From: an uncultured bacterium
Lineage (GTDB): Bacteria; GCA-001730085
DNA length: 32,000 nt
Assembly: GCA_964565945.1 (NCBI GenBank)
Contig: CAZMGY010000012.1
Span: forward strand, 60,001 to 92,000
Reading direction: 5' to 3'
Shown here: piece by piece, positions 3 to 29,228 of the stretch
How the letters are laid out: each line of letters starts with the position of its first letter
How positions within the stretch are numbered: the first letter of the stretch is position 1
Position numbers and translations under genes: made by a program
Notes under the pieces: generated by a model
What the model was told of the DNA's origin: nothing
Seen by the model: the letters and a program-made list of their open reading frames with translations, nothing else
Databases searched by the model: none

Positions 3-3000
3 ATGATTCTCGAAAAAGAATTCGGAGAGGGTGCGCGTGAGCGTTTAACCGCTCAGATGCTTGATGCTCAAGTGACATCGAATCCTTTGGAAATGCAACG
101 CTTAATGAAAGCCAGAGTTGTTTTTACCGCGACCGATTGCCTCAATTTTTTGGACTTGTCGGCGCGGAATCCGCACAAAGCTAAAGATTCCAATGCGATC
201 GCTTTGCGTGATGCTTTAGTTAAAGGTACCACGAGGATTGTGGATGAGATTCATAAATTTGTAACCCAGCAAAAGAGCTTTGTGACGGGAACGGATGCTG
301 GTGAAGTGGCTGTGGGTGTGCGCGATGCTAAATTAGCACATTACATTACGGAACAAGCTTTGAACTTGATTCAGGAAAAACTAGGCAAGGGCGAAGCTAT
401 CTATAATTCTCAAGGAGGTTTTGCCTCAGGTGCAGAGAAGGTTTTACTTGGGAAACGAATGGGGCAGGGTGTTTTACGCTTTAATCCTGAACGTGTTGGA
501 AATACGGATGTGGCTTTTAGTGCTGCTTTTAAAGTGGAGTTATTGCGGAGGTTGCAAACCAGTCGATTGGATGGGTTTAACTTGAGCAGTCAGGCCGCAA
601 AGCTTATGGATCGTTTTGGTGGCCGTGGTGAAAAAGAATTAGCGAATCGCTTGAAGACTCTTTACAAGGTGGGTGAACACGATGTTTATTCGGCACCTCA
701 GTTTGTTTTCCATTATTTGGATCATTTGGCGCAGTCCTTTTCGGGACGGACGCGTGTGAAGGAGTTGCAAAACCGTTATGGTCCCAACCAGGCTTATGAG
801 GTTTTATTGGATTCGAAAAGCAAAATGATTGAACGTGATGAGCATGGTGTGCCTCGGGTTGTTCCGATGAGTGGTGGGGAAAAACAAGTTAGCCAGAAAT
901 ACTCGAATCGTGAACATGTTCTATCGATCTATTATTCAACGCTGGCTCAGCATATGTTTCAAGATGGTCGTTTTACGGGCAGTTGGAAGAAATCTTTGAT
1001 TCAGGATGCTAGTCGCATTAAATTACAGCCTGATTCCTATCGCTTGAAGTTAAGCGATCACTTAGAGATGGCCACACGCGCTGGTCGTGTGCTGGGTTTT
1101 TCTGGATCGGTGGTAGGTTCTCAGCAGGCGTTTGAGTTTATGATGGGGATGAAAGTTTGGACCTCCCAAAGAGCCGAATATAAATTGGCTGGTGATACCG
1201 TCGGTAAGTACGTAATTGATCCGATGATGCGTTTGCATCAGAACGAAGTGAGTCAAATTGATAGCCACGGTATGCGAGAAAAGTTTGAAAAAGCCTTAAC
1301 CGAAGGTGCCACTGTAACCCCACAGTATCGTCAAATGATTGAGAAACGCTTGAAAGAGCGCTTACGTTTCGAAAAAGAAAGTCGAATGGAATTAGCTCAA
1401 ATCGAAGGACTACTTAAGGAAGTTCCTAAGATTAAAGATGCTTTGTGGCTTCGTGAAAAAACATCAAGCTCAGAAGGCAAAGAGGCGATTCGTCCTGGTA
1501 GCACGAATCCTTTAACCCAACGTTTATTTAATGAGGCGCTGAGACATCAAAAAATCTATGATTTATCTGCCAAGCAGGTTAATGAAGGCTATTTGAAGGA
1601 TCGTACCATCAATCATGACAAGTTGTCGCCGCAGGATCGTTCGGCAAACTATGAAGTGATCAAAAATGAAATTGTGGCCGAAGCTAGCTATTTAAGAGCT
1701 AAGCATGAGCAAGCTTTGCGTCATCAAGCCGAAATGGAAAAAGGTACCCCTCTTACTAAGCGAGAGCTTGAAACACTTCGCGAAAAAGTGATGAGCATCG
1801 AAGAGACGCGCCAGTTGGCATCGCGTTTGATTGAGCTCAAAACTCAAGGGGATGTGTTAGGGCGTCATATTGTCAAGCAGATAATTGGTGACGGGTATGT
1901 GGCTCTTAAGGAAAAAGGTATTACGGCCGAAAAACTGATGGAGAGGCTTGAAATCCAAGTCCAGAACATGATTACAAAGACGCTGAAAAAGATCCCTACC
2001 GACTCTTCGATAGAGGGTCATCACGCTCTCGTGGTGGATTATACGGTTTCAACCCGAATGGAAAATCTACATACTCTGCTCGAGGAAGCGGCTAAGGCCA
2101 ACAAAGATGTGATTGTTAAGGATTTGACTGGAGAATGGCGTTTGTTCTTGCATAAAGAAAAACAAAATTGGGTTAATCGTGAAACAGGTCAGATTGAATT
2201 TTCACGTACTTTGCGCTTCGATCAAGATATGGCCAAGTCGTTGCTTGATAAAGGTAAAACAGAGGTTCCTGCCGAATTTGTGGCCGAGATACAAGCCCGT
2301 GGTCTAAAACTAACCCAGGGTAGAAAAGGTGAAATGCTATTGTACCGCAACGGTAGCGAACCTGGTCAGTTGAATGTAGATATTGGAGCTGTTTATTTAT
2401 TCCCCGCGGGTGCGACGGGAACCAACTTGGAGATGAAAGCGAGTGGAAAATTTCGCCAAAAAATCATTAAGATTTTTGATCGTCAGATGCTCGAGAAAGA
2501 GTTTCAACAAGGTTTGGGTCGTGATCGCGGAGTGCGTGTTGAACCTGTGGACGGTGTGGGTTTTAAATTGCCATCGGAGCGTCACGTTTACTTTATGTCG
2601 CCCGAAGGTAAATACCAGTATGAAGGGGTGAAGGGGCAGGTGAAAACGGGTAATATGTTGCACAGCAATGGAACGGTTGATTTGCATCAGCTGTTTCATA
2701 TGCTTCGCACCAACCAAGAAGTGAATACTAAAGTACAAAACTTTCGTCAGGCCAGTGAAGCTTTGTATGAACCGCATAATCGGGTGGTTTCAGAAGTGTT
2801 GCGCTTAATTCGTCCTCATGAAGAACAATTGTTCCATGTGAAAAAATTGCTTAAAGATCACTTGAAAAACATTCAGAACGAAAAGCGCGAAGCCTTTCGT
2901 GTTTCCCTTTTGGAGACTAAGAGTACAACTCTCGTTTTGCAAGATATGGCGCGTAAAGCTAACAATCAAATGATTAAGTTGCTTGATGCTCTCGAAGGGA

Positions 3001-6000
3001 AGGGCCTAAAAATGAATTTTGCCAATCTTATGGGACAGGGAGAAGTGTTGTCAGCGATTAATCGCATGCCAGCCAACCGCACCTTCAACCTTCTTCGCAG
3101 TGATGTGAAGGAGCTTTTGCAAACGCATCGAGATGGTTTAAAAGGCGACTTGCGTTTTGCTGATATTAGTCGCGCTGTACCTGAAGGTGGTTTGATGAAT
3201 GCGAAAACAATGGCTGATGTGATTAATGTGATTAGCAGTTTGGGTCGCGATGCTTTATTGGCTAAAACTAGCCAACGGACGTATTCGGGTGAAATTTCGC
3301 GTCAAACAGTTTCGGCCAAATCGATGTCTGGTTTGGCTGAAAATGCTTACAAACGATTGCGTTCTGATGGTGCTATTAGTCAGAAACAATGGCAACTGGC
3401 TCAAAATCGAGCCAAAACCAAGATGATGAAGTTACATCGCTATAGCAAAGTTCGCAAACGTTTGCGTTTGGACGAAGCGAACCGTAGCGATGGTGTTAAG
3501 TCCAATAGTTTCTTCAAACGGATGTGGAATTATCGTTCAAACCAAGAGAAACGTAAGCCTGTCTATGCTCAGTGGAATGTTGAGACGCGTGATGAGCAGT
3601 TTGAAAAAGTGATGAAGTCTGACGCTCTCTTGCGCAGTGAGTACATGGTGGAAACCATGAATGCATTGTTTGCCCAACCCGACGTCGCAATTGAAAAACG
3701 TTATCGTGAAGCTCTCGATAAAGTCGTTAAAACTTTTGGTGCCAAAAGTTGGCGCCCCGCAACTCCTAAGGTTTTGGATGCAGATTCCTTGTATAAACTC
3801 TACACTGAATACCATTTTTACAATAAAACGGCGTTGCTGATGCACGTGAAAGAGTTTGATTGGTTGCGTGAACTTTTTTTTGGAGAACTTAATGTGGATA
3901 ACGATACCGTTGTATTAGATGATGGCGTATCGGTTTTTGCTCACAAGGATATCACGGCGCAGTTAGAAAAAATGGTCACAGACGAGCTTAGTCCGTTGCA
4001 CCAAGCGATCCAAGCGAAACATGCTTCGGATAATGCTGTTAGGGTTCAGCAAGTGACGCTTAATTCGCGTTGGACTGGCGAACAAAGCGATCAACTGATT
4101 CATGTCTCTGTCCAGTTTTCTGATGAATTGACGGGGGATAGTTACCAAGAGGATGTGACCTTTGTTTATCGCAATTACAAAAGGTTCCTGTGGCAGCTCC
4201 CAAATCATCGGCAACTTGTCACAGTGGCCGATTATTTGGGAGCTGCCACAGGAACCTTTAATGAAAACAAGGTGTTGAAGCTGGGTGAGCTTGCTGGACG
4301 TGAAGTACTTCGTAAGATGAATACTCGCATACGTACTGAACTAGAAGCAGAACAATCTTTTAAAATATTCATTCAAAAAGCTTATCAAGATGGTTTGGAT
4401 TTGGCCAAAGAGGTTGGCTTGCAGGATGAGTTGCTGCAGCGATTCTTGGAAGAATATCAAAAGGGCCTTGCTGGGACAGCACCCAATGCTTCATTAAGAG
4501 CTCGTTTGACCCAGTTGGGTACTTCTGAACACAGGGGGGCTAACTTTGTGCGCCACTTTATAGTGCTGGATCAATTGGTGCAAAAGATTGAGAAAGCTGG
4601 TGTTTTCAAAAAAGGTTCTTTGGATCGTTCCAAATTACGTCAGAAGATACTGAGTGCTCAGGTGAGCGTTCTAAAGCATGCTCGAAGCGACGCAGATGAT
4701 AAACAACCAAAAGCTACGGATAAGGTTGAAGAAACCTTATCCCTAAGGCAGGCGGTGCTTAAACTTCAGCAAGAGCCAGGCAATGCTCGTTTGGAGGTCG
4801 CTATTAACGAAAGGCTCAAATTACTTGTGGAAAGCGAGCTGAAGGTTCAAACGCGTCAACGAGCTGATTTCTCTCAGAAAGCTTTGACATCCTATGCACC
4901 ATCGGCCAAGTGGTATGCACGCTTTTTCCGTTGGAGTATTCGCCGCTCGCCGATGAGTGACAAAGATATTAAAGCGGCTGTTAAAGAAATTGATGCCAAA
5001 GATTGGGTCAGAGATGTGATTAAAGAGGTGGTGAAAACCACAGGTGTTAATCGTGTCGGAGATATTCTGCAGTCTGGTGATAAAATCGATCCTCATTTTG
5101 AAGACAAAAAAGACTTTAAGTTGAGAGAAGTTGCAGCTCAATCTTTGAGTTGGTTGCAAGAGCGTCGTAAACAAGAGGCTGGTATAGATCTGAATGCCAT
5201 GGGCGGTTTGGGTGGATTCCCTGGAATGGATTTTGGATCGATGGCGGGTGGCCAGGAAACGGGTGAACTTGTGATTGATCTTAAACAGCTAGCTGCAGAA
5301 ATGGGTATGAATCAGCAGGAGTTGCAGAACAAACTTCACGAAGTTATCTTGGGTACCAAGGAGGCGGGTGTGCGTTTGGAGCAAACACGCCTATGGCAAC
5401 AACGCTATCTAACAGTTAAAATGTACAAAGAATGGAAAGCGATTATCTTGTATTTGGCACAACAGTCTCAATCGGATGCAACCATGATGGATAAGCTGCG
5501 ACCCTTGTTGGAAGATATCTATGTGCATGATCGTGACAATATCATTGAATCTGGTCAAGCGTCGGTGTCACCGTTGGCCAATATGAAAACTTTAGAAGAA
5601 GTTCAAAAACACTGGTTTGAGATGAAAGAGAAGGACTACGAATTGCGTGATAAGAAAGCCAAGTTGACCCAATTGGAAGAAGATCTTAAACCTCTTTTGC
5701 CTAAAACGGAGACCCAGCAAGATGGAGATAATCTGGATTCCTCTCAAGCCGTTAAGCTTACTGAAGAACAAGAAACGAAGAAAAAGTCGCTCGAAGAACA
5801 AACAGCTAAGTTTAAAGAAGAGATTGCTAAGCTTGAAGAATCGCTTGCTGTCCTTGGAGATCAGATGGATAAGAAGCTTCGTTTAGGAGTGTTTGCTGAC
5901 CTTTATCGCGAGTTGATGGGAATTCATGGCTTGTTGGAGAAACGCTCGGAGACGGGGCAGTTAGATGCCATTGGCCAAAAGTTTACAGAAAAAATGCAAC

Positions 6001-7145
6001 AATTGTCCCAGGAAGCTGGTGAAGACGAAGGTTTGAGTGAAAAAATCACAGTTATCGACGAATTGCTTGAGAAAAAGGAAGAGTCTGATATTCAAAAACT
6101 CAATAAAGATCTTGTCGATGTGTTGCAGCGTCAAGATTTTGATGATCAGCGTGATTCCGAACGAGCTCAGGCCGATGAGGCTTTGGATGAAGTAAGCTAC
6201 CGTCAACTTTTCCCTGAAGAAACGTATCAAGCTAAAGGGGAGGAAAAACAGCAGACGGTGGCTATTGATCAGTTACGTCAACCAATGTCAGAATCATCCG
6301 ATCTATTGGCCACAGGCACAGATGACTTAAATTTGCATGAGGCTTCTACCTTAAATGGATCGATCGAAGGAACACTTACCATTTTACGCCCTGGTCGAGT
6401 GGGTAATGTGCCCCAGGCTCAAGCCACTTTGAGTCGTCTTACAGGAGATCTTAGAGCTTTAGTGTTGCCCGCAACTGAAGGTGTGGCGGATGTTAATGTC
6501 ACTAACCCTGTTGACTTACAATCGGTGGCAGTTAAGGTACCAGGATTTTTGACCTATGTGCAAGAACGCTTGGCTGGGAAAGGGCAACATAGGCCTCTTG
6601 AAATTATTGTGGATGAGAAGGTTACGGGACGAAGCAACGAGCTTCGTAGTGCGAATAATAAAGATGTGATTGCTTTTAATCCTTACTTTGTTCAAAATTA
6701 TCCTAACCTTGTGGCGGTTGAAATCTTTCACGAAGTAGCACATGCCTTTACTCACGATGTTCTGGGAGAGACTTTTCATCATGATGCGAACGTGTTTGAT
6801 GACAAGCGTGGCTTGATTGAAGCGGCCGTTTACAAACTGCAATACGTGGCGCTGGCGGCTTTCCTTAAGTATCCAGAATTACTTAAAGTGGCTGAAGCCT
6901 ATAAGCAGTTGCTTCAACAAGATTACACATTGGCTATCAGGGGTGATGAACTTGAAGGCAAGGAGGTGAGGGACGTCTTTGCCTTTGGTGACCCTTTTGA
7001 TCAATTTATTCAACGGATCTATCACTCTGCATTGGACGGACGAGGGGAAGCCACCTTTATTGGGTTACCCGCTGTCGTTGAGCATATTACTCGCGACTTG
7101 AGTCAAGTGATGGAATACCAAGCCAAGCTTGTGGTGGCGACTTAA
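3..7145 (+). CDS. Giant multidomain protein, 5'-truncated by the window edge (at least 2380 aa): SecA/SF2-like NTPase motor motifs, long helical/coiled-coil body, C-terminal HExxH zincin-like module
   Basis: One uninterrupted ORF runs from the window edge to TAA at 7143-7145, with no start codon in view. 2380 stop-free codons is far beyond chance, and the antisense ORFs inside it are all short. Motifs read from the translation: VDEIH (nt 240-254), LGFSGS..AFEF (nt 1092-1139), AGATGT (nt 2406-2423), Gly-rich linker GGLGGFPGMDFGSMAGG (about nt 5201-5265), E/K/Q-rich coiled-coil-like stretch (about nt 5580-6250), HEVAH (nt 6729-6743). Confidence 0.85.
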   Translation: MILEKEFGEGARERLTAQMLDAQVTSNPLEMQRLMKARVVFTATDCLNFLDLSARNPHKAKDSNAIALRDALVKGTTRIVDEIHKFVTQQKSFVTGTDAGEVAVGVRDAKLAHYITEQALNLIQEKLGKGEAIYNSQGGFASGAEKVLLGKRMGQGVLRFNPERVGNTDVAFSAAFKVELLRRLQTSRLDGFNLSSQAAKLMDRFGGRGEKELANRLKTLYKVGEHDVYSAPQFVFHYLDHLAQSFSGRTRVKELQNRYGPNQAYEVLLDSKSKMIERDEHGVPRVVPMSGGEKQVSQKYSNREHVLSIYYSTLAQHMFQDGRFTGSWKKSLIQDASRIKLQPDSYRLKLSDHLEMATRAGRVLGFSGSVVGSQQAFEFMMGMKVWTSQRAEYKLAGDTVGKYVIDPMMRLHQNEVSQIDSHGMREKFEKALTEGATVTPQYRQMIEKRLKERLRFEKESRMELAQIEGLLKEVPKIKDALWLREKTSSSEGKEAIRPGSTNPLTQRLFNEALRHQKIYDLSAKQVNEGYLKDRTINHDKLSPQDRSANYEVIKNEIVAEASYLRAKHEQALRHQAEMEKGTPLTKRELETLREKVMSIEETRQLASRLIELKTQGDVLGRHIVKQIIGDGYVALKEKGITAEKLMERLEIQVQNMITKTLKKIPTDSSIEGHHALVVDYTVSTRMENLHTLLEEAAKANKDVIVKDLTGEWRLFLHKEKQNWVNRETGQIEFSRTLRFDQDMAKSLLDKGKTEVPAEFVAEIQARGLKLTQGRKGEMLLYRNGSEPGQLNVDIGAVYLFPAGATGTNLEMKASGKFRQKIIKIFDRQMLEKEFQQGLGRDRGVRVEPVDGVGFKLPSERHVYFMSPEGKYQYEGVKGQVKTGNMLHSNGTVDLHQLFHMLRTNQEVNTKVQNFRQASEALYEPHNRVVSEVLRLIRPHEEQLFHVKKLLKDHLKNIQNEKREAFRVSLLETKSTTLVLQDMARKANNQMIKLLDALEGKGLKMNFANLMGQGEVLSAINRMPANRTFNLLRSDVKELLQTHRDGLKGDLRFADISRAVPEGGLMNAKTMADVINVISSLGRDALLAKTSQRTYSGEISRQTVSAKSMSGLAENAYKRLRSDGAISQKQWQLAQNRAKTKMMKLHRYSKVRKRLRLDEANRSDGVKSNSFFKRMWNYRSNQEKRKPVYAQWNVETRDEQFEKVMKSDALLRSEYMVETMNALFAQPDVAIEKRYREALDKVVKTFGAKSWRPATPKVLDADSLYKLYTEYHFYNKTALLMHVKEFDWLRELFFGELNVDNDTVVLDDGVSVFAHKDITAQLEKMVTDELSPLHQAIQAKHASDNAVRVQQVTLNSRWTGEQSDQLIHVSVQFSDELTGDSYQEDVTFVYRNYKRFLWQLPNHRQLVTVADYLGAATGTFNENKVLKLGELAGREVLRKMNTRIRTELEAEQSFKIFIQKAYQDGLDLAKEVGLQDELLQRFLEEYQKGLAGTAPNASLRARLTQLGTSEHRGANFVRHFIVLDQLVQKIEKAGVFKKGSLDRSKLRQKILSAQVSVLKHARSDADDKQPKATDKVEETLSLRQAVLKLQQEPGNARLEVAINERLKLLVESELKVQTRQRADFSQKALTSYAPSAKWYARFFRWSIRRSPMSDKDIKAAVKEIDAKDWVRDVIKEVVKTTGVNRVGDILQSGDKIDPHFEDKKDFKLREVAAQSLSWLQERRKQEAGIDLNAMGGLGGFPGMDFGSMAGGQETGELVIDLKQLAAEMGMNQQELQNKLHEVILGTKEAGVRLEQTRLWQQRYLTVKMYKEWKAIILYLAQQSQSDATMMDKLRPLLEDIYVHDRDNIIESGQASVSPLANMKTLEEVQKHWFEMKEKDYELRDKKAKLTQLEEDLKPLLPKTETQQDGDNLDSSQAVKLTEEQETKKKSLEEQTAKFKEEIAKLEESLAVLGDQMDKKLRLGVFADLYRELMGIHGLLEKRSETGQLDAIGQKFTEKMQQLSQEAGEDEGLSEKITVIDELLEKKEESDIQKLNKDLVDVLQRQDFDDQRDSERAQADEALDEVSYRQLFPEETYQAKGEEKQQTVAIDQLRQPMSESSDLLATGTDDLNLHEASTLNGSIEGTLTILRPGRVGNVPQAQATLSRLTGDLRALVLPATEGVADVNVTNPVDLQSVAVKVPGFLTYVQERLAGKGQHRPLEIIVDEKVTGRSNELRSANNKDVIAFNPYFVQNYPNLVAVEIFHEVAHAFTHDVLGETFHHDANVFDDKRGLIEAAVYKLQYVALAAFLKYPELLKVAEAYKQLLQQDYTLAIRGDELEGKEVRDVFAFGDPFDQFIQRIYHSALDGRGEATFIGLPAVVEHITRDLSQVMEYQAKLVVAT

Positions 7146-7874: not shown

Positions 7875-9689
7875 GTGGCTTTGATTTCGCAAGAGGTGAT
7901 ACAGGATATCTTGCAACGCATTGATATTGTCGAACTGATAGGCGAGCATGTTGAGCTAAAGCGGACAGGACAGAACTCTAAAGGTTTTTGCCCTTTTCAT
8001 AATGAAAAAAGCCCTTCATTTCATGTGAACCCTGATCGGCAAATGTATTACTGTTTTGGTTGCAATGTTGGGGGAGATGCCATTAATTTTCTTATGCGTT
8101 ATGACAGCATAACTTTTCTTGAGGCGATGGAGCGTTTAGCGGAACGGGCAGGCATAGAATTGCCCTGCGATGACGAAGGAGATTCTTCGCAAAGAGATCA
8201 GTACAAACGTTTGGCAAGCATGATGTGCGCAGCTGCGATGTATTTTCATAAAATGTTGCTTCACCCCACAATAGGTCAAAAAGTTCGCGATTATTTAAAG
8301 CAAAGACAACTAAATGAAAAGGTGATTCGTGAATTTCAGTTGGGTTTTGTTCCTACTGGTGGTCAAAACTTGTTGAAAGCTGCCCAAAAAAGTGGGGTGA
8401 ATGTGGAAGACCTACTGCTCGGTGGCTTGGTGCTTAAAAATGATTCGGGTCAGGTTTACGATCGTTTTCGTGATCGCTTTATGATTCCGATCACTGATAT
8501 GCATGGTAAAGTTATTGCTTTTGGTGGACGCGCCAGGGGAGAGACTCGACCAAAGTATTTGAACTCTCCCGAAACGCCTCTTTTTAACAAAAGTCGGGTT
8601 TTGTTTGGTCTCGACAAGGCTAAAAAAGAGATTATGCGGCGCAGAACGGTGATTGTGGTTGAGGGTTACATGGATTGTATTCGCATGGTGCAGGAGGGAT
8701 TTCCTCATGTGGTCGCCACCTTAGGCACCTCATTGACGGCTCAGCATGCATCAATCTTGAAAAGGTTTGCTGACAATGTCATTATAATTTATGATAGTGA
8801 TAAAGCCGGACAGATGGCAGCATTGCGTGGGATTGACGTATTGCTGGAAGCGGCTCTTCGTGTGGATGTTGTGGCTCTCAAAGGAGCCAAAGATCCCGAT
8901 GATTTTCTGGGATCTTTTGGCTCGGATGCGATGAATCAAAAGATTGAACAAAAAAAGCACGATTTTTTTGACTTTAAGTATCATGTTCTTTTGAAAAGCT
9001 TTGGTCAGGTTAGCCCCGAAGTTGGTAAAGCGAAGGTAGCGGATCAACTTTTCGAGAGTTTATTAAAGATCGAAAATCATATTGTTCAAGGAGAGTATTT
9101 AAAGAAACTTAGCGACCTTATGGGCGTTGATGTGTCTTTTGTGCAAGCCGAGTTTGCCAAGAAACAAAGACGAGGGCAAAGAGTGGTGCGATTGGCAGAT
9201 CATCTGCAAAAGTCAGCAAATCATGAAAAAATGCTTGAACCAGCCGAAAGAAATGTGCTGGTTCTTTTATTACGAAATGAACGTTATTTTCAGTGGTTGC
9301 TTCAGAATCAAGAAGAGTTTGCCATACAGTGGCACCACAAAGGTATTCCTCATGTGATGGCTCTTTGGAAAAAATATCGCTATTCGTCGGGTGCAGACAT
9401 ATTGATGCACACCGAAGATGAAGAGTTGAAAACTTTGATTACTGCATTAGCGATGGACGAAAGCATTGCTTCGGATGTCGAAGATAAGGTTTTTGGAGAT
9501 TGCATTCGTCAGATTGTTGTGAAACAGTTGGATAAAAAGGTTCAAAATTTGAGCCAGGAGATGATGCAAAATCATCGATTGGAAATGACGCAAGATGAAG
9601 CGAATCTATGGAGTAATGAATGTAAAGTGGAATTACAGAGTTTGATTCAGAAAAAATATAAAATCAATCAGGAAGGTGTTCTCTTATGA
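7875..9689 (+). CDS. dnaG: DNA primase DnaG
   Basis: CHC2 zinc finger [25 protein letters not shown]. Toprim motifs VVEGYMDCI and [13 protein letters not shown]. The start is ambiguous: GTG at 7875 follows GAGGAAGG/AAGGA, and the ORF track's upstream GTG at 7857 is the alternative. The stop TGA overlaps the rpoD ATG. Confidence 0.93.
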
Positions 9690-11584
9690 GTCCGAGTCCA
9701 AAGAAAAAAGTAAGTAAAGCTAAAAAAGTTACGAAAAAAGCAACCAAGAAAGTCACTAAAAAAGTGACTGAAAAATCATCTCCTAAGAAAGCTAGTTCGG
9801 CGAAGACTTCCAAAAAAACAAACCGTAGGACTCTGGCAGAAGAGTTGGCCAAAGATATTAAACGTAGTGAAACTTTGTTGGAGCAAGATATAGAACAAGA
9901 TTTTGAGATGCTTAAAAAGGTTACTGGCTTGGATCAACCTGCGGGTAATTTTAAAAGTTTAAATTCCGACAAAGGACAAAAAAAAATTAAAGAAATTATC
10001 AAAATTGGTAAAGAAAAAGGTGTGATTACATACGAAAAAGTGAATGACTTAATTCAAAACTTCCAGGTGACTGCAGAAGAGCTTGATCAGATTTTTAGCA
10101 AACTGAGTGATAATAATGTGTGCTATGTCGATTCCGATGAAGAAGCGAATATGGTGATTAATTTCAAAAAGGCCAAAGCTCCCGTTAAGAAGAAGGAAGA
10201 TATTTTAGCTATGGCTTCAACCGATTCTGTCAAAATGTATTTGCGTGAAATGGGTGAGATTGATCTATTGACCCACGAGAAAGAAATTGCTCTAGCCACA
10301 AACATTGAAAATGCCGAAATTCGTTTGAAAGATGCTGTTTTTGTTTTGGGCTATTCTTTGAAAGATCTCAATAACTTTCAAGATCCCATTAAGAAAAAAG
10401 AGCTAGAAATAAACGATTACTTTAAGGAAATTTCGAATAAAGAACGGGCTCGTTTTTCGTATTATTTCAATAAGCGTCTAATTGAAGCTAAGTCTTTGCA
10501 TCGTCGTACCCTGTTGTATCGCAATAAGATGAAAAAAACGCGTGTGCAAGAGAAAAAAGATCATTACAAAAGTTTGGTTCAGCGGATTGGCGCGGAATTT
10601 TTGGAAAAAATTGGTGAATTTCATCTAAAGCATCAATTCGTGGAAGAGTTACTTGCTAAAATTGAAGGCCATTTTGAACACGGCAAAAACGTTGAACGGA
10701 TTTTGAGCCGGTGCAAAAGAAAAAATTCAAAAGAATACAAAGAAGCCGCGAAGGAGATGGAGGTGATCGAAAAAGAAAGTCAGGTCAGTTGGAAAGGCTT
10801 TAAGGAAGCGATGAAGCTGATCCGTTATTGCCAAAAAGATTTGAGTGAATTCAAGAAAGAATTGATCAATGCCAATCTTCGTCTTGTGGTTTCAATTGCT
10901 AAAAAATACACCAACCGTGGCTTATCCTTTTTGGACTTAATTCAAGAGGGTAATATTGGTTTGATGAAAGCCGTTGATAAGTTTGAATACAAACGTGGTT
11001 ATAAATTTAGCACCTATGCAACATGGTGGATTCGCCAAGCCATTACACGTGCCATTGCCGATCAGGCACGGACAGTTCGGATTCCGGTACATATGATTGA
11101 AACCATTAATAAATTGATGAGAGCATCACGGCAATTGTTGCAAGAATTTGGTCGCGAACCTACACCAGAAGAGGTGGCGGAAGAAATGGATCTATCAGTT
11201 GAGAAAGTTCGTGGTGTTATGAAGATTGCCCAAGAGCCGATTTCTTTGCAAACACCAATAGGTGAAGAAGGCGATAGCTTGTTTGGTGATTTTATCGAAG
11301 ACAAATCCGTAGTGTCTCCTGCCAATGCAACGGCGTACACAATGCTTAAAGAGCAAATGTCGAATGTTTTAGATTCTTTGACAGAACGTGAGCGTTGTGT
11401 GCTTGAACTACGTTTTGGGATTCATGATGGTTATCCACGCACTTTGGAAGAAGTAGGTAAGCAATTTGATGTGACACGGGAACGTATCCGTCAGGTTGAG
11501 GCCAAAGCTTTACGTAAATTGCGTCATCCCACCCGGAGCCGTCAGCTTAAGGGATTTCTTGAGTGGGATATTATGAAAGGTTAG
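9686..11584 (+). CDS. rpoD: Primary RNA polymerase sigma factor (sigma-70 family, RpoD) with Lys-rich N-terminal extension
   Basis: Region 2 reads [54 protein letters not shown]. Region 4.2 reads [40 protein letters not shown] at 9671-9678. The ATG at 9686 overlaps the dnaG stop (ATGA). Confidence 0.95.
9722..9769 (+). repeat. Four tandem imperfect 12-nt units encoding [16 protein letters not shown] inside the rpoD 5' end
   Basis: AAAAAAGTTACG / AAAAAAGCAACC / AAGAAAGTCACT / AAAAAAGTGACT, codon-aligned with rpoD. Confidence 0.8.
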
Positions 11585-11841: not shown

Positions 11842-12021
11842 ATGCCTTATGTGAATGTTCAAGTGGTAGGAGAATTGACTGGTGATCAAAAATTAAAAAT
11901 TGCTCAAGAAATGTCGGAAACTCTAGAAAAAGTCGCTCAAAAACCTAAAAAGCATACCTATATTGTGTTTGAAGAGATCAAAGCTGAAAATTGGGCCAAG
12001 GGCGATCAACTTATGGGTTAA
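11842..12021 (+). CDS. 4-oxalocrotonate tautomerase family protein (59 aa)
   Basis: Not in the supplied ORF track (below its length cutoff). My own translation is MPYVNVQVVGELTGDQKLKIAQEMSETLEKVAQKPKKHTYIVFEEIKAENWAKGDQLMG. Pro at position 2 would be the catalytic Pro-1 after Met removal. The pattern MPYV.V...G.T..QK...VF.EE closely parallels B. subtilis YwhB-type 4-OT proteins. A strong SD GAGGAGG sits 8 nt upstream. Confidence 0.85.
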   Translation: MPYVNVQVVGELTGDQKLKIAQEMSETLEKVAQKPKKHTYIVFEEIKAENWAKGDQLMG

Positions 12022-12024
12022 GGT

Positions 12025-13524
12025 GTGGTGATTTCGGACATATTCACTTATTTTGAGGGACAGGCTGTTCAACTGAACCGAGTTCTTTGTGTTGCGAGTG
12101 ATCTTTGTGATTTTAACGAGCTCACGGGAGAACATTTGTGGGAGCAGTTATCTCGCGATAAAATCTTTGGGCGAAATGTGATTCGCGATCTTTACTTTGG
12201 GGGGCGCAAGGGTTATGTACCCCGGTTGGTGGTGGATACTTACCGTAATATAATTAATCAAGCCCCGCAGGATATTCAAAAAGAACTGAATCGATTGTTC
12301 GAACAAAGAATTAATGAATTAGCATGGACCGATGCTTTGGCTGAATACTTTGAGCAACGTTGTTCCTATCAAGGATCCTGGTCGATTCAGAAAGTTCAAG
12401 ACTATAGCATAGGTGCAGGAGTTTATTGTTTGAGTTTTGACTTGATTGATGCAGGGCGAACGGTTGATTTGTTTTTGAAGCGAGAATTCAAAGAAGGTTT
12501 TACTCTTAAACATGAATCGTTTTATCACGGTTTGCAAGTTTACTTGATAAATAAGGATAAGAGGCATCCACAGCCTTTTTATTATGCACAAAATCAAGGT
12601 ACCGCTTTGTCGATTGCGAAGCGGTTTCCTGGAGTCTCTTCGGAGCTGTTCTTTTCCCAGTGGCTTACACAAGACACTGAAGCGCAAAGTCGTGTTATCC
12701 ACAATTTGCTGCTTTGTTTGGGGGAGCATGCGGCCTTAGGAGATGTTTTTGGGCGCAATGACCGCCATCTTGGCAACAGTCATGTGGCTTGGGATTCAGG
12801 ATCTGATGCGTTTTTATGGAATGATCGTGATAAGCATGATTTCTGTCTCGATATTAGGCAAAGTCAGCAACTTTGGATGATTGATTTTGATATACAGTAT
12901 TTGCTTAAGCGGGATAATTATGATTGGATGCTCGAAGATATCCGCCAAGGCTTAAGCGAAATGAATCTTTTTACGGTGTTGTGGCCGCATTTTCTTTATG
13001 AGTCGAACGATGAGGAACTCTTGAAAGTCATCGATGTGTTTCAACAAGCTTATGAAGGCTTGTTGCAGCAGATGTGCAGAGAAGAGGCTTTAGACTGGAT
13101 TGATCAATGGGCTCAAAATATTTATGGAACCTCCGAAGTCCGTTCGCTCAGACACTCTTTAAGTGATCAAATCGACTATCTCTGTTCGGCATCTTGGAAG
13201 AAGTCCCATTACAGGGCTCTTTTGGTTGATTACCGTTATCGCTACACTATTAAACTGATTTTGCAGGATCGTTTAGACCAAGGAAAGCTCGCTGGGGAAT
13301 TCTTGCGTTATGTGGTGGCTCCCGAGTTGAGGGGAGCGGCGTTGCATTTGGAGGCTTTTCGAGGGGTCAGTGGACACTCTTTTTTAGATCAGGCTTCATT
13401 GCAGGAAAGGATGAGCTGGGAAGTTCTGGAAGGAGAATTAGAGGTGTTCTTAGGACAAGAGTGTTGGCTAGAGGTGCAAAGGAAAAAACAAGGCTTCGAA
13501 GAACAATTTGCAAGGATGTTTTAA
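12025..13524 (+). CDS. Hypothetical protein with PI3/PI4-kinase-like (atypical kinase) catalytic motifs
   Basis: 499-aa ORF with a GTG start 3 nt after the tautomerase stop. Its TAA abuts the trpF ATG. The catalytic-loop-like sequence LGDVFGRNDRHLGNSHV (GRNDRHLGN is encoded by nt 12751-12777) matches the G-DRH..N signature. WMIDFD (IDFD at nt 12880-12891) matches the IDFG metal-binding motif of the PI3K/PI4K fold. A candidate ATP-binding Lys is in VDLFLKREF upstream. Confidence 0.55.
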   Translation: MVISDIFTYFEGQAVQLNRVLCVASDLCDFNELTGEHLWEQLSRDKIFGRNVIRDLYFGGRKGYVPRLVVDTYRNIINQAPQDIQKELNRLFEQRINELAWTDALAEYFEQRCSYQGSWSIQKVQDYSIGAGVYCLSFDLIDAGRTVDLFLKREFKEGFTLKHESFYHGLQVYLINKDKRHPQPFYYAQNQGTALSIAKRFPGVSSELFFSQWLTQDTEAQSRVIHNLLLCLGEHAALGDVFGRNDRHLGNSHVAWDSGSDAFLWNDRDKHDFCLDIRQSQQLWMIDFDIQYLLKRDNYDWMLEDIRQGLSEMNLFTVLWPHFLYESNDEELLKVIDVFQQAYEGLLQQMCREEALDWIDQWAQNIYGTSEVRSLRHSLSDQIDYLCSASWKKSHYRALLVDYRYRYTIKLILQDRLDQGKLAGEFLRYVVAPELRGAALHLEAFRGVSGHSFLDQASLQERMSWEVLEGELEVFLGQECWLEVQRKKQGFEEQFARMF

Positions 13525-14142
13525 ATGAAGGTCAAAATATGTGGTTTAACACGTTTAGAGGATGCTAGCCTGGCGGTGGAGTTGGGTGCTGATTATTTGG
13601 GCTTTATTTTTTATCCGCCCAGTCCACGTTATATGAAGCCCAAACAAGTTAAGGAGATTTTAGCCGTTTTACCTGCAGGAACTTATCGGTCCGTGGGTGT
13701 GTTTGTTAATGCGTCGTTGCAGGATATTCAGGATATTAAAGCTCAAAGTGGTATCGATATGGTTCAGCTTCACGGTGAAGAGAGGCCCTCATTTGTCGCT
13801 GAACTGGATCCGGATTCTGTGATTAAGGTTTTAAGGGCTCAATCGACTTCTGATATGGACATTTGGCTTAAGCAACCGTACCTATTGATTGATGGTGATG
13901 CCAGAGAAGAATATGGTGGTCGCGGGGTCCAAGCCAACTGGGCCGTTGCGGCTCAATGTAAAACCGTATATAATGGTATTTTGCTATTGGCAGGTGGTTT
14001 GACACAAGATAATGTGCTGCTTGCTATGGAAAGGGTTCAACCAGATGGGGTGGATGTGTCCAGTGGCGTGGAAAGTGCCCCAGGCATTAAAGATCCCCAG
14101 AAAATGAGTCAGTTTATCAATCGGGCGAAACGGAGTGAATAG
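13525..14142 (+). CDS. trpF: Phosphoribosylanthranilate isomerase
   Basis: N-terminus [36 protein letters not shown], later VQLHGEE and AGGL, which is the typical TrpF layout. It lies immediately upstream of trpB and trpA. Confidence 0.9.
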
Positions 14143-14144
14143 GA

Positions 14145-15320
14145 ATGTCTAAACGAAAACAAGGTTACTTTGGTGAGTATGGAGGATGTTTTATTCCTGA
14201 AATTTTACATCCAGCCTTGGAAAATCTTGCAAAAATATACAAAACATTTAAGAGTGACAAAGAGTTTAAGCAGGAGTTTCAGGAATTGCTAGAAAATTAT
14301 GTCGGGCGTCCTACGCCCCTATATCTCGCTAAAAATCTTTCGGATGTGGTGGGGTGTAAAATTTACTTGAAGCGTGAAGATCTTAATCACACTGGGGCCC
14401 ATAAAATCAATAACACAATTGGACAAGCGTTGCTCACCAAACGGATGGGGAAAACACGTGTGATTGCCGAGACAGGGGCAGGGCAACATGGTGTGGCTAC
14501 GGCCACGGTGTGTGCTCTTTTGAATCTCGATTGTGTGATTTATATGGGAGAAGAAGATATTTATCGTCAGGAACTTAATGTGTTTCGGATGGAGATTATG
14601 GGGGCTAACGTGGTGACAGTTGCGTCGGGTAGTAAAACACTGAAAGATGCGACCAATGAAGCTTTGCGTGACTGGGCTTCTTCGGTTGAGAATACTCACT
14701 ACATTATTGGATCGGTAGTTGGACCGCATCCTTTTCCTACAATTGTGCGTGATTTTCAGTCGGTGATCGGACGAGAAGCACGCAAGCAAATTCTTAAAGC
14801 CGAAGGGCGTTTACCAGATTATTTGTTAGCCTGTGTGGGTGGGGGAAGTAACGCCATGGGCTTGTTTCATCCCTTTTACAAAGAGGCTGTTCACCTGATA
14901 GGTGTTGAGGCTGGAGGTCATGGATTGACTTCAGATGCTCATTGCGCGACTTTGCTTAAAGGAAAGCCTGGTGTGATACATGGATGTCGCAGTTATTTGT
15001 TGCAAGATAAATATGGACAGGTGAAAAAAACACACTCTGTGTCAGCTGGTTTAGATTATCCGGGTGTAGGGCCTGAACATAGTTTTTATCGTGATACGGA
15101 GCGAGCGGAGTATCATGTGATCAATGATAAAGAGGCGTTGAAGGCTTTTCAGATTTTATCGGAAACAGAGGGAATTATTCCAGCCCTTGAGACCTCGCAT
15201 GCGATTGGTTATTTGTTAAAAAACAAAGATCGCTTTAAAGAGGAGGATATTGTTGTGATCAACTTATCGGGACGTGGTGATAAGGATGTGACCCAAGTGA
15301 AAGAGATTTTAGGAAATTAG
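14145..15320 (+). CDS. trpB: Tryptophan synthase beta chain
   Basis: PLP-lysine motif [25 protein letters not shown]. The 391-aa length fits the TrpB1 type. Confidence 0.95.
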
Positions 15321-15331
15321 GAGTTGTTCAT

Positions 15332-16099
15332 ATGAATCGAGTGCGAGAGGCTTTTTCTAAGGGGCCTATATTTGTTCCTTTTTTGACTGCGGGCTATCCC
15401 GATTCGGAGACTTTTATCGATTTGGTTGTTTTATTGGCCGAAGAGGGAGCTGGTTTGATTGAAATTGGCTTGCCGTTTTCTGATCCTGTGGCTGATGGAA
15501 AAGTGATTCAAGTGGCTTCGCAAAAAGTTTTGGATGCTGGCATGAATGTGTATAAGGCATTTGAACTGATTCAACAGATTCGCGAGCGTACCGATGTGCC
15601 TATTGCTGTGATGACATATTATAACATTGTGATGCACAAAGGTGTGAAGAGCTTTGTGAAGCAATGTGTCGATCATGGTGTTGATGGCTTGATTGTTCCC
15701 GATTTGATTGTTGAAGAGGCTGATGAGTTAATCAAGGAGTTGCGCAACCAATTGGCTTTAACGTTCTTTTTGTGTCCAACAACGCCAGAACATCGTGTGG
15801 CGACGATTGTTAAAAAAACAAGTGGATTTCTCTATTATGTGTCACGAATGGGTGTGACTGGTGTGGGAGGTTTAGATTTTCAAAAAATCAAAGACCGCCT
15901 GACGACTATTAAGGAGCAAACCGATATTCCAGTGGCCCTTGGTTTTGGAATTTCGCAGCCTAAAGAAGCCAAAGAATTTGCCTCGTATGTGGACGGTATT
16001 ATTATGGGAAGTGCCTTGATTCAAAAAATAGATGCGGTGCGTGACGAAGAAGATTTCTTTAAATATGTGCGAGAATTTGTGAGACCCTTCATTTGGTAG
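15332..16099 (+). CDS. trpA: Tryptophan synthase alpha chain
   Basis: FVPFLTAGYPD, IEIGLPFSDPVADG, YYVSRMGVTG, GFGIS. SD AGGAG upstream. Confidence 0.93.
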   Translation: MNRVREAFSKGPIFVPFLTAGYPDSETFIDLVVLLAEEGAGLIEIGLPFSDPVADGKVIQVASQKVLDAGMNVYKAFELIQQIRERTDVPIAVMTYYNIVMHKGVKSFVKQCVDHGVDGLIVPDLIVEEADELIKELRNQLALTFFLCPTTPEHRVATIVKKTSGFLYYVSRMGVTGVGGLDFQKIKDRLTTIKEQTDIPVALGFGISQPKEAKEFASYVDGIIMGSALIQKIDAVRDEEDFFKYVREFVRPFIW

Positions 16100-16104
16100 T
16101 GACT

Positions 16105-16701
16105 ATGACCTCGCGCTTGATTCTTGCTTCGGCTTCACCTCAACGTTCGGATATATTACAAAAATGTTGCTTGCATTTTGTAGTGGTTCCCGCTGCGATT
16201 GAGGAATGGGAGGATGAGCAAGCTGATCCGGTTGAGTTGAGCCAAAAAAATGCTGAAATGAAAGCTCAGGCGGTCGCCGAGGCTTATCCTGATGATGTGG
16301 TTGTGGCCGCCGATACAATTGTTTTGTCTCGAGGTAAAGTTCTCAGTAAACCCCAAAATTTTGACCATGCCCTACAAATGTTTGAAAGCTATCAAAATCA
16401 AGTTGTGTCGGTTTTTTCTGGTGTGGCAGTGCATTATCAAGATCGTCTTGTTAGCAGGGTTGATGAGACGAAGATTCGGATGCGTTCTTATTCTCAAGAG
16501 CAGTATTTGAAAATGGCTCAGAAACTTTTTTCTTTGGATAAGTCTGGAGGTTTTACGATTGAAGGCATGGGGGCTGTCTTGTTTGATGCTTTGGAAGGTT
16601 CGTTTTACAACGTTTTAGGTTTACCCGTTCATCTGCTCCATGACCTTATGGCTGATGTGGGGTTAAGTTTGTGGGACTTTCGCGAGGTTGACAATGCATG
16701 A
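16105..16701 (+). CDS. maf: Maf-like nucleoside triphosphate pyrophosphatase (septum formation inhibitor family)
   Basis: LILASASPQRSDIL, AADTIV, DKSGGFTIEG, NVLGLP. I prefer the ATG at 16105. The ORF track's TTG at 16093 would overlap the trpA stop. Confidence 0.88.
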   Translation: MTSRLILASASPQRSDILQKCCLHFVVVPAAIEEWEDEQADPVELSQKNAEMKAQAVAEAYPDDVVVAADTIVLSRGKVLSKPQNFDHALQMFESYQNQVVSVFSGVAVHYQDRLVSRVDETKIRMRSYSQEQYLKMAQKLFSLDKSGGFTIEGMGAVLFDALEGSFYNVLGLPVHLLHDLMADVGLSLWDFREVDNA

Positions 16702-17650
16702 TGTGATTCAAATGCTTGTAGATAAGAAAGTAAGCTTATCTCCTTTGGCTGGTGTTTCGGATATGGCCTTTCGCCTTATGTGTCGCAAATTTGGCTGTCC
16801 GTATGCGTTCACCGAGATGATTGATGCACGTGCCATTTTGAGTGCCAGACAAAGTACTTTTCTCATGATGGCGACCAACGATGAAGATACTCCTTTGGGG
16901 GTGCAGATTGTGGGTGACAAGATTGATGATATTGTTGAGGCGGCTAAAGTGTGTCGCGATCGTGGCATTGATATGATTAATATCAATGCGGCTTGCCCTG
17001 TTCCAAAAATTAAGCGCAAGGGCAAGGGTGTGGCCATGATGAATGAGCCTGATAAAATTGGGGTGATGCTGCGACGATTGGTTCAGGCGACGGAATTACC
17101 TGTGGTTTTAAAGATACGCAGTGGCTTTAACCAAGATTCATTGAACTACATGGAGGTGAGTCAACGTGCCGAAGACGAAGGGGCTGCGGCTATTTTTATT
17201 CATCCTCGCCATGCCGAAGCTAAATATGCGGGACCTTTATCTAAGGAGCACATTGTCGAGATGAAACAGAAACTTAAGATTCCTGTTTTTGCCAGTGGCA
17301 ATCTTCTTAAAGCTCAAGATGTGATCAATATGTTGAATGACACTGGCTGTGATGGTGTGTCCATTGCACGAGGTTCGATGGGACAGCCGTGGATTTTTGC
17401 GCAGAGTTTGGCCTTACTTGAAGGGCGAAAACCGATGGAGAAACCATCTTTGGACGAAATTAAAGCAATGGTGAAAGAACATTTTGCATTGATGTGCCAA
17501 GTGCATCCTTTTGATCGTGCCTTGCCACGGATGTATAAGCATTTGACTTGGTATTTCACCAAGCATAAGCGTTTGGATGAGTTGATGCGCCGTTTGCGTG
17601 CTGATGTGGGCAGTGAAGAGCAGTTTGCGACTTTTGTGGAGCAGTTTTGA
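16694..17650 (+). CDS. dus: tRNA-dihydrouridine synthase
   Basis: LSPLAGVSDMAFRLMCRKFGCPYAFTEMI, INAACP, FIHPR, ARGSMGQPWIF. The ATG at 16694 overlaps the maf stop by 8 nt. The TTG at 16688 is the alternative start. Confidence 0.88.
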   Translation: MHDVIQMLVDKKVSLSPLAGVSDMAFRLMCRKFGCPYAFTEMIDARAILSARQSTFLMMATNDEDTPLGVQIVGDKIDDIVEAAKVCRDRGIDMININAACPVPKIKRKGKGVAMMNEPDKIGVMLRRLVQATELPVVLKIRSGFNQDSLNYMEVSQRAEDEGAAAIFIHPRHAEAKYAGPLSKEHIVEMKQKLKIPVFASGNLLKAQDVINMLNDTGCDGVSIARGSMGQPWIFAQSLALLEGRKPMEKPSLDEIKAMVKEHFALMCQVHPFDRALPRMYKHLTWYFTKHKRLDELMRRLRADVGSEEQFATFVEQF

Positions 17651-20400: not shown

Positions 20401-20667
20401 TTAAGACAGGAGAGCTGAAAGCTTTTCTGCTAATTTGGTTTTGTGACGATTGGCATAGTTTTTATGCACAAGGCCTTTCTGAGCCGCACGATCAAGATGA
20501 GAAAATGCTTTTTTGATATATAAGCTAGCGTTTTCTTGATCGCCAGCTGCAATGCTTTGATCGGTTTTCTTAACAAATGTTCTCATAGTGGATTTAACCC
20601 CATTATTACGCAAACGTTTGATAGCATCTGTTTTAACGCGTTTTTTAGCAGACTTTAAATTTGGCAC
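20401..20667 (-). CDS. rpsT: 30S ribosomal protein S20
   Basis: MPNLKSAKKRVKTDAIKRLRNNGVKSTMRTFVKK is typical of S20. GTG start with SD AGAGGTG 5 nt upstream. Confidence 0.95.
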   Translation of the reverse strand: MPNLKSAKKRVKTDAIKRLRNNGVKSTMRTFVKKTDQSIAAGDQENASLYIKKAFSHLDRAAQKGLVHKNYANRHKTKLAEKLSALLS

Positions 20668-23081: not shown

Positions 23082-23231
23082 ATGAAAGAACTTCTTTTTG
23101 TTCTGGTTGTGATTGCGGCGGTTTTGCTGGTCACAATGATCCAGGTGCTTAAATGGCGTTGGGATTTTCGTCAGAGAAGTGATGTGTTTGAAGGTGAGGA
23201 GAATGACGAATGCAGTTTTGAGTCGGCATAG
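23082..23231 (+). CDS. Possible 49-aa single-pass membrane peptide
   Basis: My own translation is MKELLFVLVVIAAVLLVTMIQVLKWRWDFRQRSDVFEGEENDECSFESA. The ATG lies 3 nt after the hflX stop. It has one strongly hydrophobic helix, then a basic and an acidic tail. It overlaps the likely addB-like start by 29 nt. The SD is weak (GGGGT). Confidence 0.35.
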   Translation: MKELLFVLVVIAAVLLVTMIQVLKWRWDFRQRSDVFEGEENDECSFESA

Positions 23232-29199: not shown

Positions 29200-29228
29200 A
29201 TAAATTACACCAAGATTGATAGGTGAAC

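Follow-up and report, generated by a model that had tools for sequence, protein, structure and literature searches.

Gene X, encoded between rpoD and trpFBA of an uncultured bacterium, represents a rare kinase-like family on the PI3K/PI4K/LanM-like side of the kinase superfamily

The stretch of DNA analysed here comprises 32,000 nucleotides from an uncultured bacterium (assembly GCA_964565945.1, contig CAZMGY010000012.1, positions 60,001–92,000) and is, in its whole length, referred to as the window. It contains gene X, an open reading frame (ORF) for a kinase-like protein located between a small tautomerase gene and the tryptophan biosynthesis genes trpF, trpB and trpA (Table 1). The stop codon of the tautomerase gene ends at position 12021, 3 nt before the GTG of X at 12025, and the stop codon of X ends at 13524, directly followed by the trpF ATG at 13525. 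In a preliminary description of this DNA, X had been regarded as a PI3/PI4-kinase-like protein translationally packed into a tryptophan operon; the ORF, both of its motifs, both gene junctions, the tautomerase and trpFBA were all found in the sequence as described there. The present analysis favours, as fairly probable, X being a soluble, probably active ATP-dependent phosphotransferase, with its adjacency to the trp genes reflecting inherited gene order and not a role in tryptophan synthesis.

Table 1 Features of gene X, its neighbourhood and related loci (positions refer to the window unless another contig is named)
Feature	Position	Strand	Basis or remarks
Gene X, kinase-like protein	12025..13524	+	GTG start, 499 aa
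N-terminal helical region, residues 1–115, with conserved YRxxINxAP (73–81)	12025..12369	+	six helices in model
Glycine-rich loop analogue DYSIGAGVYC, residues 126–135, between β1 and β2	12400..12429	+	conservation, model
K152 (in FLK), predicted ATP-phosphate-binding Lys, strand β3	12478..12480	+	conservation, model strand 145–153
E164 (in NE164), predicted helix-C acidic residue pairing with K152	12514..12516	+	conservation, model
Catalytic loop LGDVFGRNDRHLGNSHV, residues 238–254; D246 predicted catalytic, N251 predicted metal-binding	12736..12786	+	conservation
Clade-specific insertion, residues 257–282, between catalytic loop and DFG-type strand	12793..12870	+	alignment, model
WMIDFD, residues 284–289; D289 as DFG-equivalent, predicted metal-binding Asp	12874..12891	+	conservation, alignment
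Family signature NYDWMLEDIRQGLSE, residues 298–312, after the DFG-type Asp	12916..12960	+	W301, D305, G309 invariant
C-terminal all-helical region, residues 329–499, with Y343, DYRYR (402–406) and LEAFRGVS (442–449)	13009..13521	+	long model helices
Tautomerase gene, 59 aa, 4-oxalocrotonate-tautomerase family, Pro straight after start Met	11842..12021	+	PF01361, 38.6 bits (cut-off 22)
trpF	13525..14142	+	Pfam PRAI
trpB	14145..15320	+	Pfam PALP
trpA	15332..16099	+	Pfam Trp_syntA
maf	16093..16701	+	Pfam Maf; overlaps trpA
dus	16688..17650	+	Pfam Dus; overlaps maf
rpsT	20401..20667	-	
ORF at the window start	3..7145	+	
RpoD N-terminus	9686..9830	+	
AddB/AddA-like nuclease-helicase pair	23179..29199	+	
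DEAD-box helicase	29223..31157	+	
X–trpF gap of 112 nt	L003 11513..11624		
X homologue of coral metagenome contig	L021 2323..3318		
U-box gene (~520–560 aa) and X homologue	L011 6239..9623; L014 4191..6762; L019 109..3112; L010 8001..12453		divergent in three loci

The motifs LGDVFGRNDRHLGNSHV and WMIDFD are separated by 29 residues in X, and both are unchanged in its two close homologues. Since, in addition, D246, N251 and D289 are invariant in an alignment of 17 sequences (members 20–50 % identical to X), the motifs are not attributable to chance. Further invariant positions of this alignment are L294, W301, D305, G309, Y343 and R406; N245, L413 and F445 are nearly so. No motif had been recognised in the N-terminal part, which proved to carry the loop D-x-S-I-G-x-G-V-Y as well as FLK152 and NE164. 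In alignment A3, S128, K152 and E164 are invariant and D126 is nearly so; the loop precedes K152 and E164 also in a 25-sequence alignment, and across 25 family members position 152 is occupied by K or R and position 164 by E or D. Residues P81 and F92 are conserved in the N-terminal region. WMIDFD had been read as an IDFG-type motif; the family-invariant Asp, however, is its second one, D289, and at position 287 other members have A, T, P, G, Q, S, R or D. Likewise, a spacer of about 30 residues between the motifs applies to X itself but not to the family, as it harbours a clade-specific insertion of low model confidence (predicted local distance difference test, pLDDT, <50 at residues 260–275), which is missing in most members (~18 residues at this place). 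Downstream of D289, the signature NYDWMLEDIRQGLSE probably represents a substrate or activation segment. The hydropathy maximum (19-residue) of X is 1.2, and no transmembrane or hydrophobic segment was detected. With 14 Trp (2.8 %), X exceeds the remaining proteins of the window pooled (1.2 %) in its content of this residue; its two close trp-linked homologues contain 1.8 %, distant homologues mostly 0.6–1.5 %, with 1.6 % in one case. AddA and AddB of the window are likewise rich in Trp.

A structure prediction by AlphaFold (AF2) from three sequences was poor (pLDDT 51) and was set aside; the 17-sequence alignment yielded a model with a pLDDT of 85.1 and a predicted template modelling (TM) score of 0.85. 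Six N-terminal helices are followed by strands 119–126 and 134–140 flanking the glycine-rich loop, strand 145–153, helix 162–175 with E164 at its start, strands 185–187 and 195–199, and helices 206–215 and 222–242 leading into the catalytic loop; strand 283–287 runs up to D289 and precedes a long helical C-terminal region. In the model, a five-stranded N-lobe, helix C and a helical C-lobe make up the bilobal fold of the protein-kinase-like (PKL) superfamily, and K152 (K/R), E164 (E/D), D246, N251 and D289 make up its catalytic set. Comparison of the predicted structure by Foldseek, as proposed in the preliminary description, returned 161 matches in PDB at E ≤ 1e-3, of which 50 were listed, every one a kinase (EphA3, PYK2, CDPK1, EGFR and others); the highest query TM-score in this list belongs to Vps34. 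Foldseek probability was 1.00 to many kinases, with best E-values of 4.6e-5 (PDB) and 5.8e-6 (BFVD). Matches in BFVD were again kinases, the best superposition being obtained with a Halorubrum virus protein annotated as PI3K/PI4K catalytic domain (TM-score 0.34, root mean square deviation 6.4, 334 columns). Fold class and conservation of catalytic residues are established here, and at this level the assignment of X as a kinase is well supported; the activity itself we infer.

Database searches place X in a family of very few known relatives. X has no match at E ≤ 10 in Pfam, NCBIfam or PDB sequences, and searches of these with a profile of X and its two close homologues were also empty. In a word-indexed search of 5.8 billion proteins, only two homologues were found, the closer one (50 % identical) from the bryozoan-associated "PVC group bacterium (ex Bugula neritina AB1)" (hereafter AB1) and the second one (41 %) of metagenomic origin. 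With the 17-sequence alignment this search returned only the three close proteins, and with the Coxiellaceae-type homologue P0013 solely unnamed metagenomic ones. The three-sequence profile, run against all 1.84 billion cluster representatives, detected 42 proteins at E ≤ 1e-3, including 20 at E ≤ 1e-30. Scanning of genome collections revealed only the AB1 genome and one Coxiellaceae metagenome-assembled genome (MAG), and scanning of metagenomes one locus. The relatives that were looked up all lack a name or bear generic or misleading annotations; one is called L-aspartate oxidase on account of a domain fused to it. All lineages in which the family has so far been found live with hosts or are regarded as host-dependent.

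A module of ~480 residues is conserved as one whole in this family and occurs in three forms: as stand-alone proteins of 500–580 residues, as part of proteins of 841 to 4984 residues (those with a named source belong to Candidatus Omnitrophota), and split by a large insertion located between profile positions ~200 and ~220. Within the Omnitrophota polypeptides, the module is preceded by an MTS methyltransferase domain and accompanied by B12-binding radical SAM and NadB-like flavoprotein domains. This giant architecture fits the "multi-enzyme" class of giant proteins (bioRxiv 10.64898/2026.06.07.730766). Fusion to a tautomerase domain was looked for in the giant homologues, and none was found. 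In two giant Omnitrophota proteins (P0010, residues 437–847; P0015, residues 1404–1846), the insertion between N-lobe and C-lobe contains a PHP phosphoesterase domain, which places a possible phosphatase within the kinase-like module.

The sole curated model giving the X family any signal is PF00454 (PI3_PI4_kinase; gathering threshold 27.1 bits). It matches the AB1 homologue (P0002; E 0.09, 13.1 bits) and two remote relatives (P0032 and P0043; E 1.7e-4 and 9.5e-4, 22.0 and 19.6 bits), always below the threshold and always across model positions ~126–173, from the catalytic loop to DFG. The GDRHxxN loop of the model, with its DxH, corresponds to NDRHLGN in X. Both remote relatives belong to a sister family (alignment A4; P0032–P0043 and cluster members) of ~380–470 aa from marine MAGs, source labels of which include Marinamargulisbacteria, Rickettsiales and Actinomycetota. 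Its motifs are LGDVFGRGDRHFENY, P-x-D-x-S-Y-L-F and NDDWxxxYIxGGxSE, the latter being the counterpart of NYDWMLEDIRQGLSE. By hhalign, the sister family is homologous to the X family (probability 99.8, E 9e-30, 336 columns), the N-terminal region of X included in the alignment. A search of PDB with the sister-family profile gave 13 weak matches, 12 of which are the class III PI3K Vps34; these set GDRHxxN and the DFG Asp against the loop and Asp of the sister family, and by way of this family D289 of X is aligned to the Asp of IDFG in Vps34. The segment of the catalytic loop is covered by the alignments to both PF00454 and Vps34. In PDB, the A2 profile had only a chance match. Two remote relatives also match, weakly and below threshold, DUF4135, the kinase-like domain of LanM, and the structure of the LanM enzyme CylM displays the same set of Lys, Asp-x-His, Asn and Asp on a lipid-kinase fold as found in X (PMC4550811).

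Because of the PF00454 signal, the homology to the sister family, the Vps34 matches and the CylM catalytic set, X is placed on the PI3K/PI4K/LanM-like side of the superfamily, where its family adds a branch near PI3K/PI4K and the LanM kinase domain. From the earlier assignment to the PI3K/PI4K-type kinases, fold and catalytic segment are retained on the basis of Foldseek, the sub-threshold PF00454 signal and the Vps34 matches of the sister family, and the X family is regarded as rare and new, not as a member of PF00454, and is absent from Pfam, NCBIfam and PDB. Nothing was found that singles out type II PI4K, to which the closest likeness had been proposed. The suggested distinction from HipA and from aminoglycoside phosphotransferases (APH) is supported, with neither profile matched in Pfam at E ≤ 10; for APH/choline kinase this refers to PF01636, and the loop of X reads NDRHxxN and not HxDxxxxN as in the Brenner motif.

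Three close lineages, namely those of the window, of AB1 and of the metagenomic contig L003, share one gene order: cvpA, dnaG, rpoD, tautomerase, X, trpF, trpB, trpA, maf, dus, bamD-like, lptE, holA and rpsT. As they are syntenic over ~20 kb (cvpA to rpsT), they count as one observation. Between X and trpF there are 0 nt in the window; L003 has 64 or 112 nt at this place, and for AB1 the value is −4 or +11 nt according to which gene call is used. The 112-nt gap in L003 contains a G+C-rich inverted repeat (CCCCTC...GAGGGAGGGG), which could part both genes transcriptionally. Throughout the window, neighbouring genes are often joined at −14 to +11 nt (dnaG/rpoD −4 nt, trpF/trpB +2, trpA/maf −7, maf/dus −14, bamD-like/lptE 0, addB/addA 0); the abutment of X and trpF is not special, because trpA is equally tightly joined to the unrelated genes maf and dus. 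Nearly all genes of the window are encoded on the forward strand, only rpsT on the reverse one, and all 1-kb bins have a positive GC skew (0.12–0.28). This fits a compact leading-strand region, which accounts for the many junctions of 0–4 nt, and the position of X between rpoD and trpFBA probably represents inherited order within it.

Promoter counts in the window equal the shuffled expectation, and terminator-like sites number 12 compared to 6.2 expected (sd 2.5); on the forward strand, none of these is located in the rpoD–tautomerase gap or at the X–trpF junction. Rfam revealed no leader, T-box, riboswitch or other RNA element in the window. For X, neither PADLOC nor PHROGS yielded a significant match; the tautomerase had one weak PADLOC match (type I specificity subunit, E 0.0028, 14.7 bits). 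Genes for trpC, trpD and trpE were not found within the 32 kb; bacteria commonly have a split arrangement, with trpFBA in one operon and trpC and trpD at other places. TrpA of the window keeps the acidic residues of IEIG and SDPVADG, which we take to correspond to Glu49 and Asp60 of the E. coli enzyme. Among the remaining features, the ORF running off the window start codes for at least 2380 aa without a Pfam domain at E ≤ 1e-3, and the gene at the matching position in L003 for 3859 aa. The N-terminus of RpoD reads as a lysine-rich, histone-H1-like tail ahead of the sigma-70 regions. The DEAD-box helicase, carrying a C-terminal DSHCT (Ski2/Mtr4-type) domain, is located downstream of the AddB/AddA-like pair.

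The tautomerase matches PF01361 above threshold and starts with MP in all four lineages in which it accompanies X. In a manual alignment, what we take to be the canonical Arg11 and Arg39 of 4-oxalocrotonate tautomerase (4-OT) appear not to be kept. The fourth lineage, contig L007, is not syntenic with the other three: its X homologue (28 % identical by BLASTP, 34 % in a global alignment) is overlapped at its start by an orthologous 59-residue tautomerase gene (49 % identical), and the other neighbours are metX, metW and tilS. No neighbour of X except the tautomerase recurs in a second gene context; its presence in this rearranged setting suggests that tautomerase and X form a two-gene module, with two contexts in favour and one counter-example. 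The latter is a coral metagenome contig (L021), in which the X homologue (36 % identical) follows 36 nt after rpoD with no tautomerase in between. This homologue has one in-frame stop after ~residue 113 and intact catalytic motifs downstream, and could represent a pseudogene, a sequencing error or a recoded stop. A literature search on tautomerase/trpF or tautomerase/kinase associations retrieved nothing relevant.

Gene contexts were further established for six Coxiellaceae-type loci; these include a record with the title "uncultured Coxiellaceae bacterium", a locus with IcmW in the vicinity and one with a CBU_0592-family gene. In five of the six, X adjoins a U-box gene or is one gene away from it. 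Often purA is found nearby, and the layout of the U-box/X loci recalls effector/metaeffector pairs. No trp neighbours occur at L007, the Coxiellaceae-type loci or the Omnitrophota loci. The recurrence of a tautomerase–kinase–trpF linkage, which had been proposed for examination, was accordingly observed in part: it is present in the three close lineages, and its tautomerase–X portion also in L007, but the trp portion is confined to one syntenic clade.

In the favoured interpretation of X as an ATP-dependent phosphotransferase, and by analogy with the kinase superfamily, K152 on strand β3, held by E164 of helix C, would set the phosphates of ATP in place beneath the DxSIGxGVY loop. The predicted catalytic residue is D246 in the GRNDRHxxN loop, N251 and D289 would bind Mg2+, and the NYDW..ED..QG.SE segment after D289 could form the substrate site together with the C-terminal helices. 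The ~480-residue module recurs in varied settings, alone in marine-invertebrate-associated PVC and Coxiellaceae-like bacteria and embedded in giant Omnitrophota multi-enzymes. In the window lineage, X is probably co-expressed with the 4-OT-family tautomerase, and both may act on the same small substrate.

Several observations weigh against this interpretation. X itself has no match to PF00454 at E ≤ 10, and no curated threshold was reached. The model was built from 17 sequences only, and Foldseek TM-scores are low throughout (0.2–0.36); therefore, no solved structure is close. Conservation of DRH/N/DFD, as anticipated for a kinase in the preliminary description, was observed for D246, N251 and D289, but only 11 of the 25 family members have His248, and some members possess degenerate loops (NDHGF, NDARF, NDSKL) and may be inactive. 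The tautomerase link is known from two contexts only and is missing in L021; moreover, L007 may come from a related lineage, in which case residual synteny is possible. Finally, given the real abutment of stop and ATG, co-transcription of X with trpFBA is likely.

An unlikely alternative is that X represents a secreted, host-directed kinase for phosphoinositides or a host protein, similar to injected atypical phosphatidylinositol (PI) kinases, with the trp adjacency being incidental. The lineages concerned comprise a bryozoan-associated PVC bacterium, a coral metagenome, Coxiellaceae-like contigs with IcmW and CBU_0592 genes, and Omnitrophota (PMC10066038). Delivery of PI 3-kinases is known from Legionella and Rickettsia (PMC8605245, PMC12607708), and the catalytic loop of X is of the PI3K/PI4K type. 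The eukaryote-like U-box E3 ligase genes next to X point in the same direction; however, the U-box loci are mutually syntenic (with purA) and thus provide few independent observations. In the window clade, by contrast, X resides within a housekeeping operon, preceded by dnaG–rpoD and followed by trpFBA–maf–dus, and is paired with a small tautomerase of metabolic type, and the radical SAM, methyltransferase and flavoprotein domains of the Omnitrophota fusions are those characteristic of multi-enzymes in metabolism. For Coxiellaceae-type members a host-directed role is plausible, for the window gene with its housekeeping surroundings less so. Identification of the substrate of X could uncover a new activity, either metabolic or in host interaction, and would provide a name for one more unannotated stretch of the giant Omnitrophota proteins.

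Improbable is a function of X as a LanM-type modifier of peptides or proteins by Ser/Thr phosphorylation, possibly with elimination, or by other chemistry such as AMPylation. The weak DUF4135 matches of the sister family and the identical catalytic set of CylM are in accord with it, as are the B12-radical SAM and methyltransferase domains of the Omnitrophota fusions, which also occur in peptide-tailoring systems, and the PHP domain between the lobes of P0010 and P0015. But the DUF4135 matches are sub-threshold and restricted to the sister family, no LanC cyclase domain, precursor-peptide gene or transporter is found near X in the window, and the small ORF upstream codes for a well-scoring tautomerase instead of a leader/core peptide.

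Even less probable is an involvement of X and the tautomerase in tryptophan supply, in which X would phosphorylate a salvaged precursor for TrpF or TrpA, or replace a missing step such as that of TrpD or TrpC. The order tautomerase–X–trpF–trpB–trpA is found in all three close lineages, the X–trpF junction in the window is 0 nt, and trp-linked X proteins are richer in Trp than most distant homologues. The TrpA of the window, with its presumably equivalent acidic residues kept, should need indole-glycerol phosphate, and trpC, trpD and trpE are missing from the window. These arguments are countered by the synteny that reduces the three lineages to one observation, the lack of conservation of the X–trpF gap, the tautomerase-linked homologue in L007 and all other homologues being devoid of trp neighbours, the commonness of split trpFBA operons, and the fact that the TrpC and TrpD reactions are not kinase reactions. 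The tight packing, on account of which co-expression with trpFBA had seemed built in, does not support a trp-related function, since the linkage is confined to one syntenic clade, tight junctions occur all over the window and homologues elsewhere lack trp genes; a role of X in tryptophan synthesis is unsupported. Very doubtful, too, is the special case of the tautomerase–kinase pair as a new two-enzyme module feeding or controlling trpFBA in host-associated PVC bacteria, wherein, for instance, a host-derived enolisable or ribosylated precursor might be trapped as phosphate ester for TrpF or TrpA, replacing the early trp genes. That X is a catalytically inactive kinase-fold scaffold (pseudokinase), as might be supposed from the degenerate catalytic loops of P0011, P0023, P0024 and P0025 and the in-frame stop in the L021 homologue, is most improbable of all, with all five catalytic positions retained in X and in most members.

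Compared to known systems, HipA/HipT resembles X in being a kinase on a PI3/4K-related fold whose gene comes straight after a small one that overlaps it. The catalytic motif differs, and the upstream gene codes for a Pro-1 tautomerase and not for HipB or HipS; with no HipA_C signal in Pfam at E ≤ 10 either, a HipBA-like toxin–antitoxin system was rejected. Legionella MavQ and LepB and the Rickettsia PI3K effector are, like X, divergent kinase-fold enzymes of host-associated bacteria, and such Legionella and Rickettsia PI kinase effectors are invisible to standard domain models (PMC8605245, PMC12607708). Coxiellaceae-type homologues of X share with them the vicinity of effector-like genes (U-box). 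The window gene, however, resides in a housekeeping operon, and no sequence or structural match of X to these injected enzymes was obtained, none of them being among its top 50 PDB matches.

LanM enzymes (CylM, DUF4135) are likewise bacterial and have a lipid-kinase-like fold. X differs by its much smaller size and by the absence of a LanC domain and of a precursor peptide, neither gene being present near X, and the X family itself does not match DUF4135. Clearly homologous is the sister family, also uncharacterised, which shares with X an R..IN.AP-like N-terminal motif, the glycine-rich loop, Lys, the catalytic loop, Asp and W..(D/Y)I.(Q/G)G.SE, but has a canonical GRGDRH(F/L)xNY loop, P-x-D in place of F-D and a shorter C-terminus. 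Relative to PI3K/PI4K (PF00454, e.g. Vps34), the loop of X is NDRH and not GDRH, with a His that the family does not conserve, x-F-D takes the place of D-F-G at the DFG position (IDFD compared to IDFG in Vps34), no lipid-binding activation loop is recognisable, Foldseek TM-scores are 0.25–0.35, and the X family has motifs of its own (NYDW..ED..QG.SE and LEAFRG). Common to X and PI3K/PI4K are the bilobal fold, with helices ahead of the kinase core and in the C-lobe, and a catalytic loop of the form G-x-x-D-R-H-x-x-N, after which come a strand and the metal-binding Asp.

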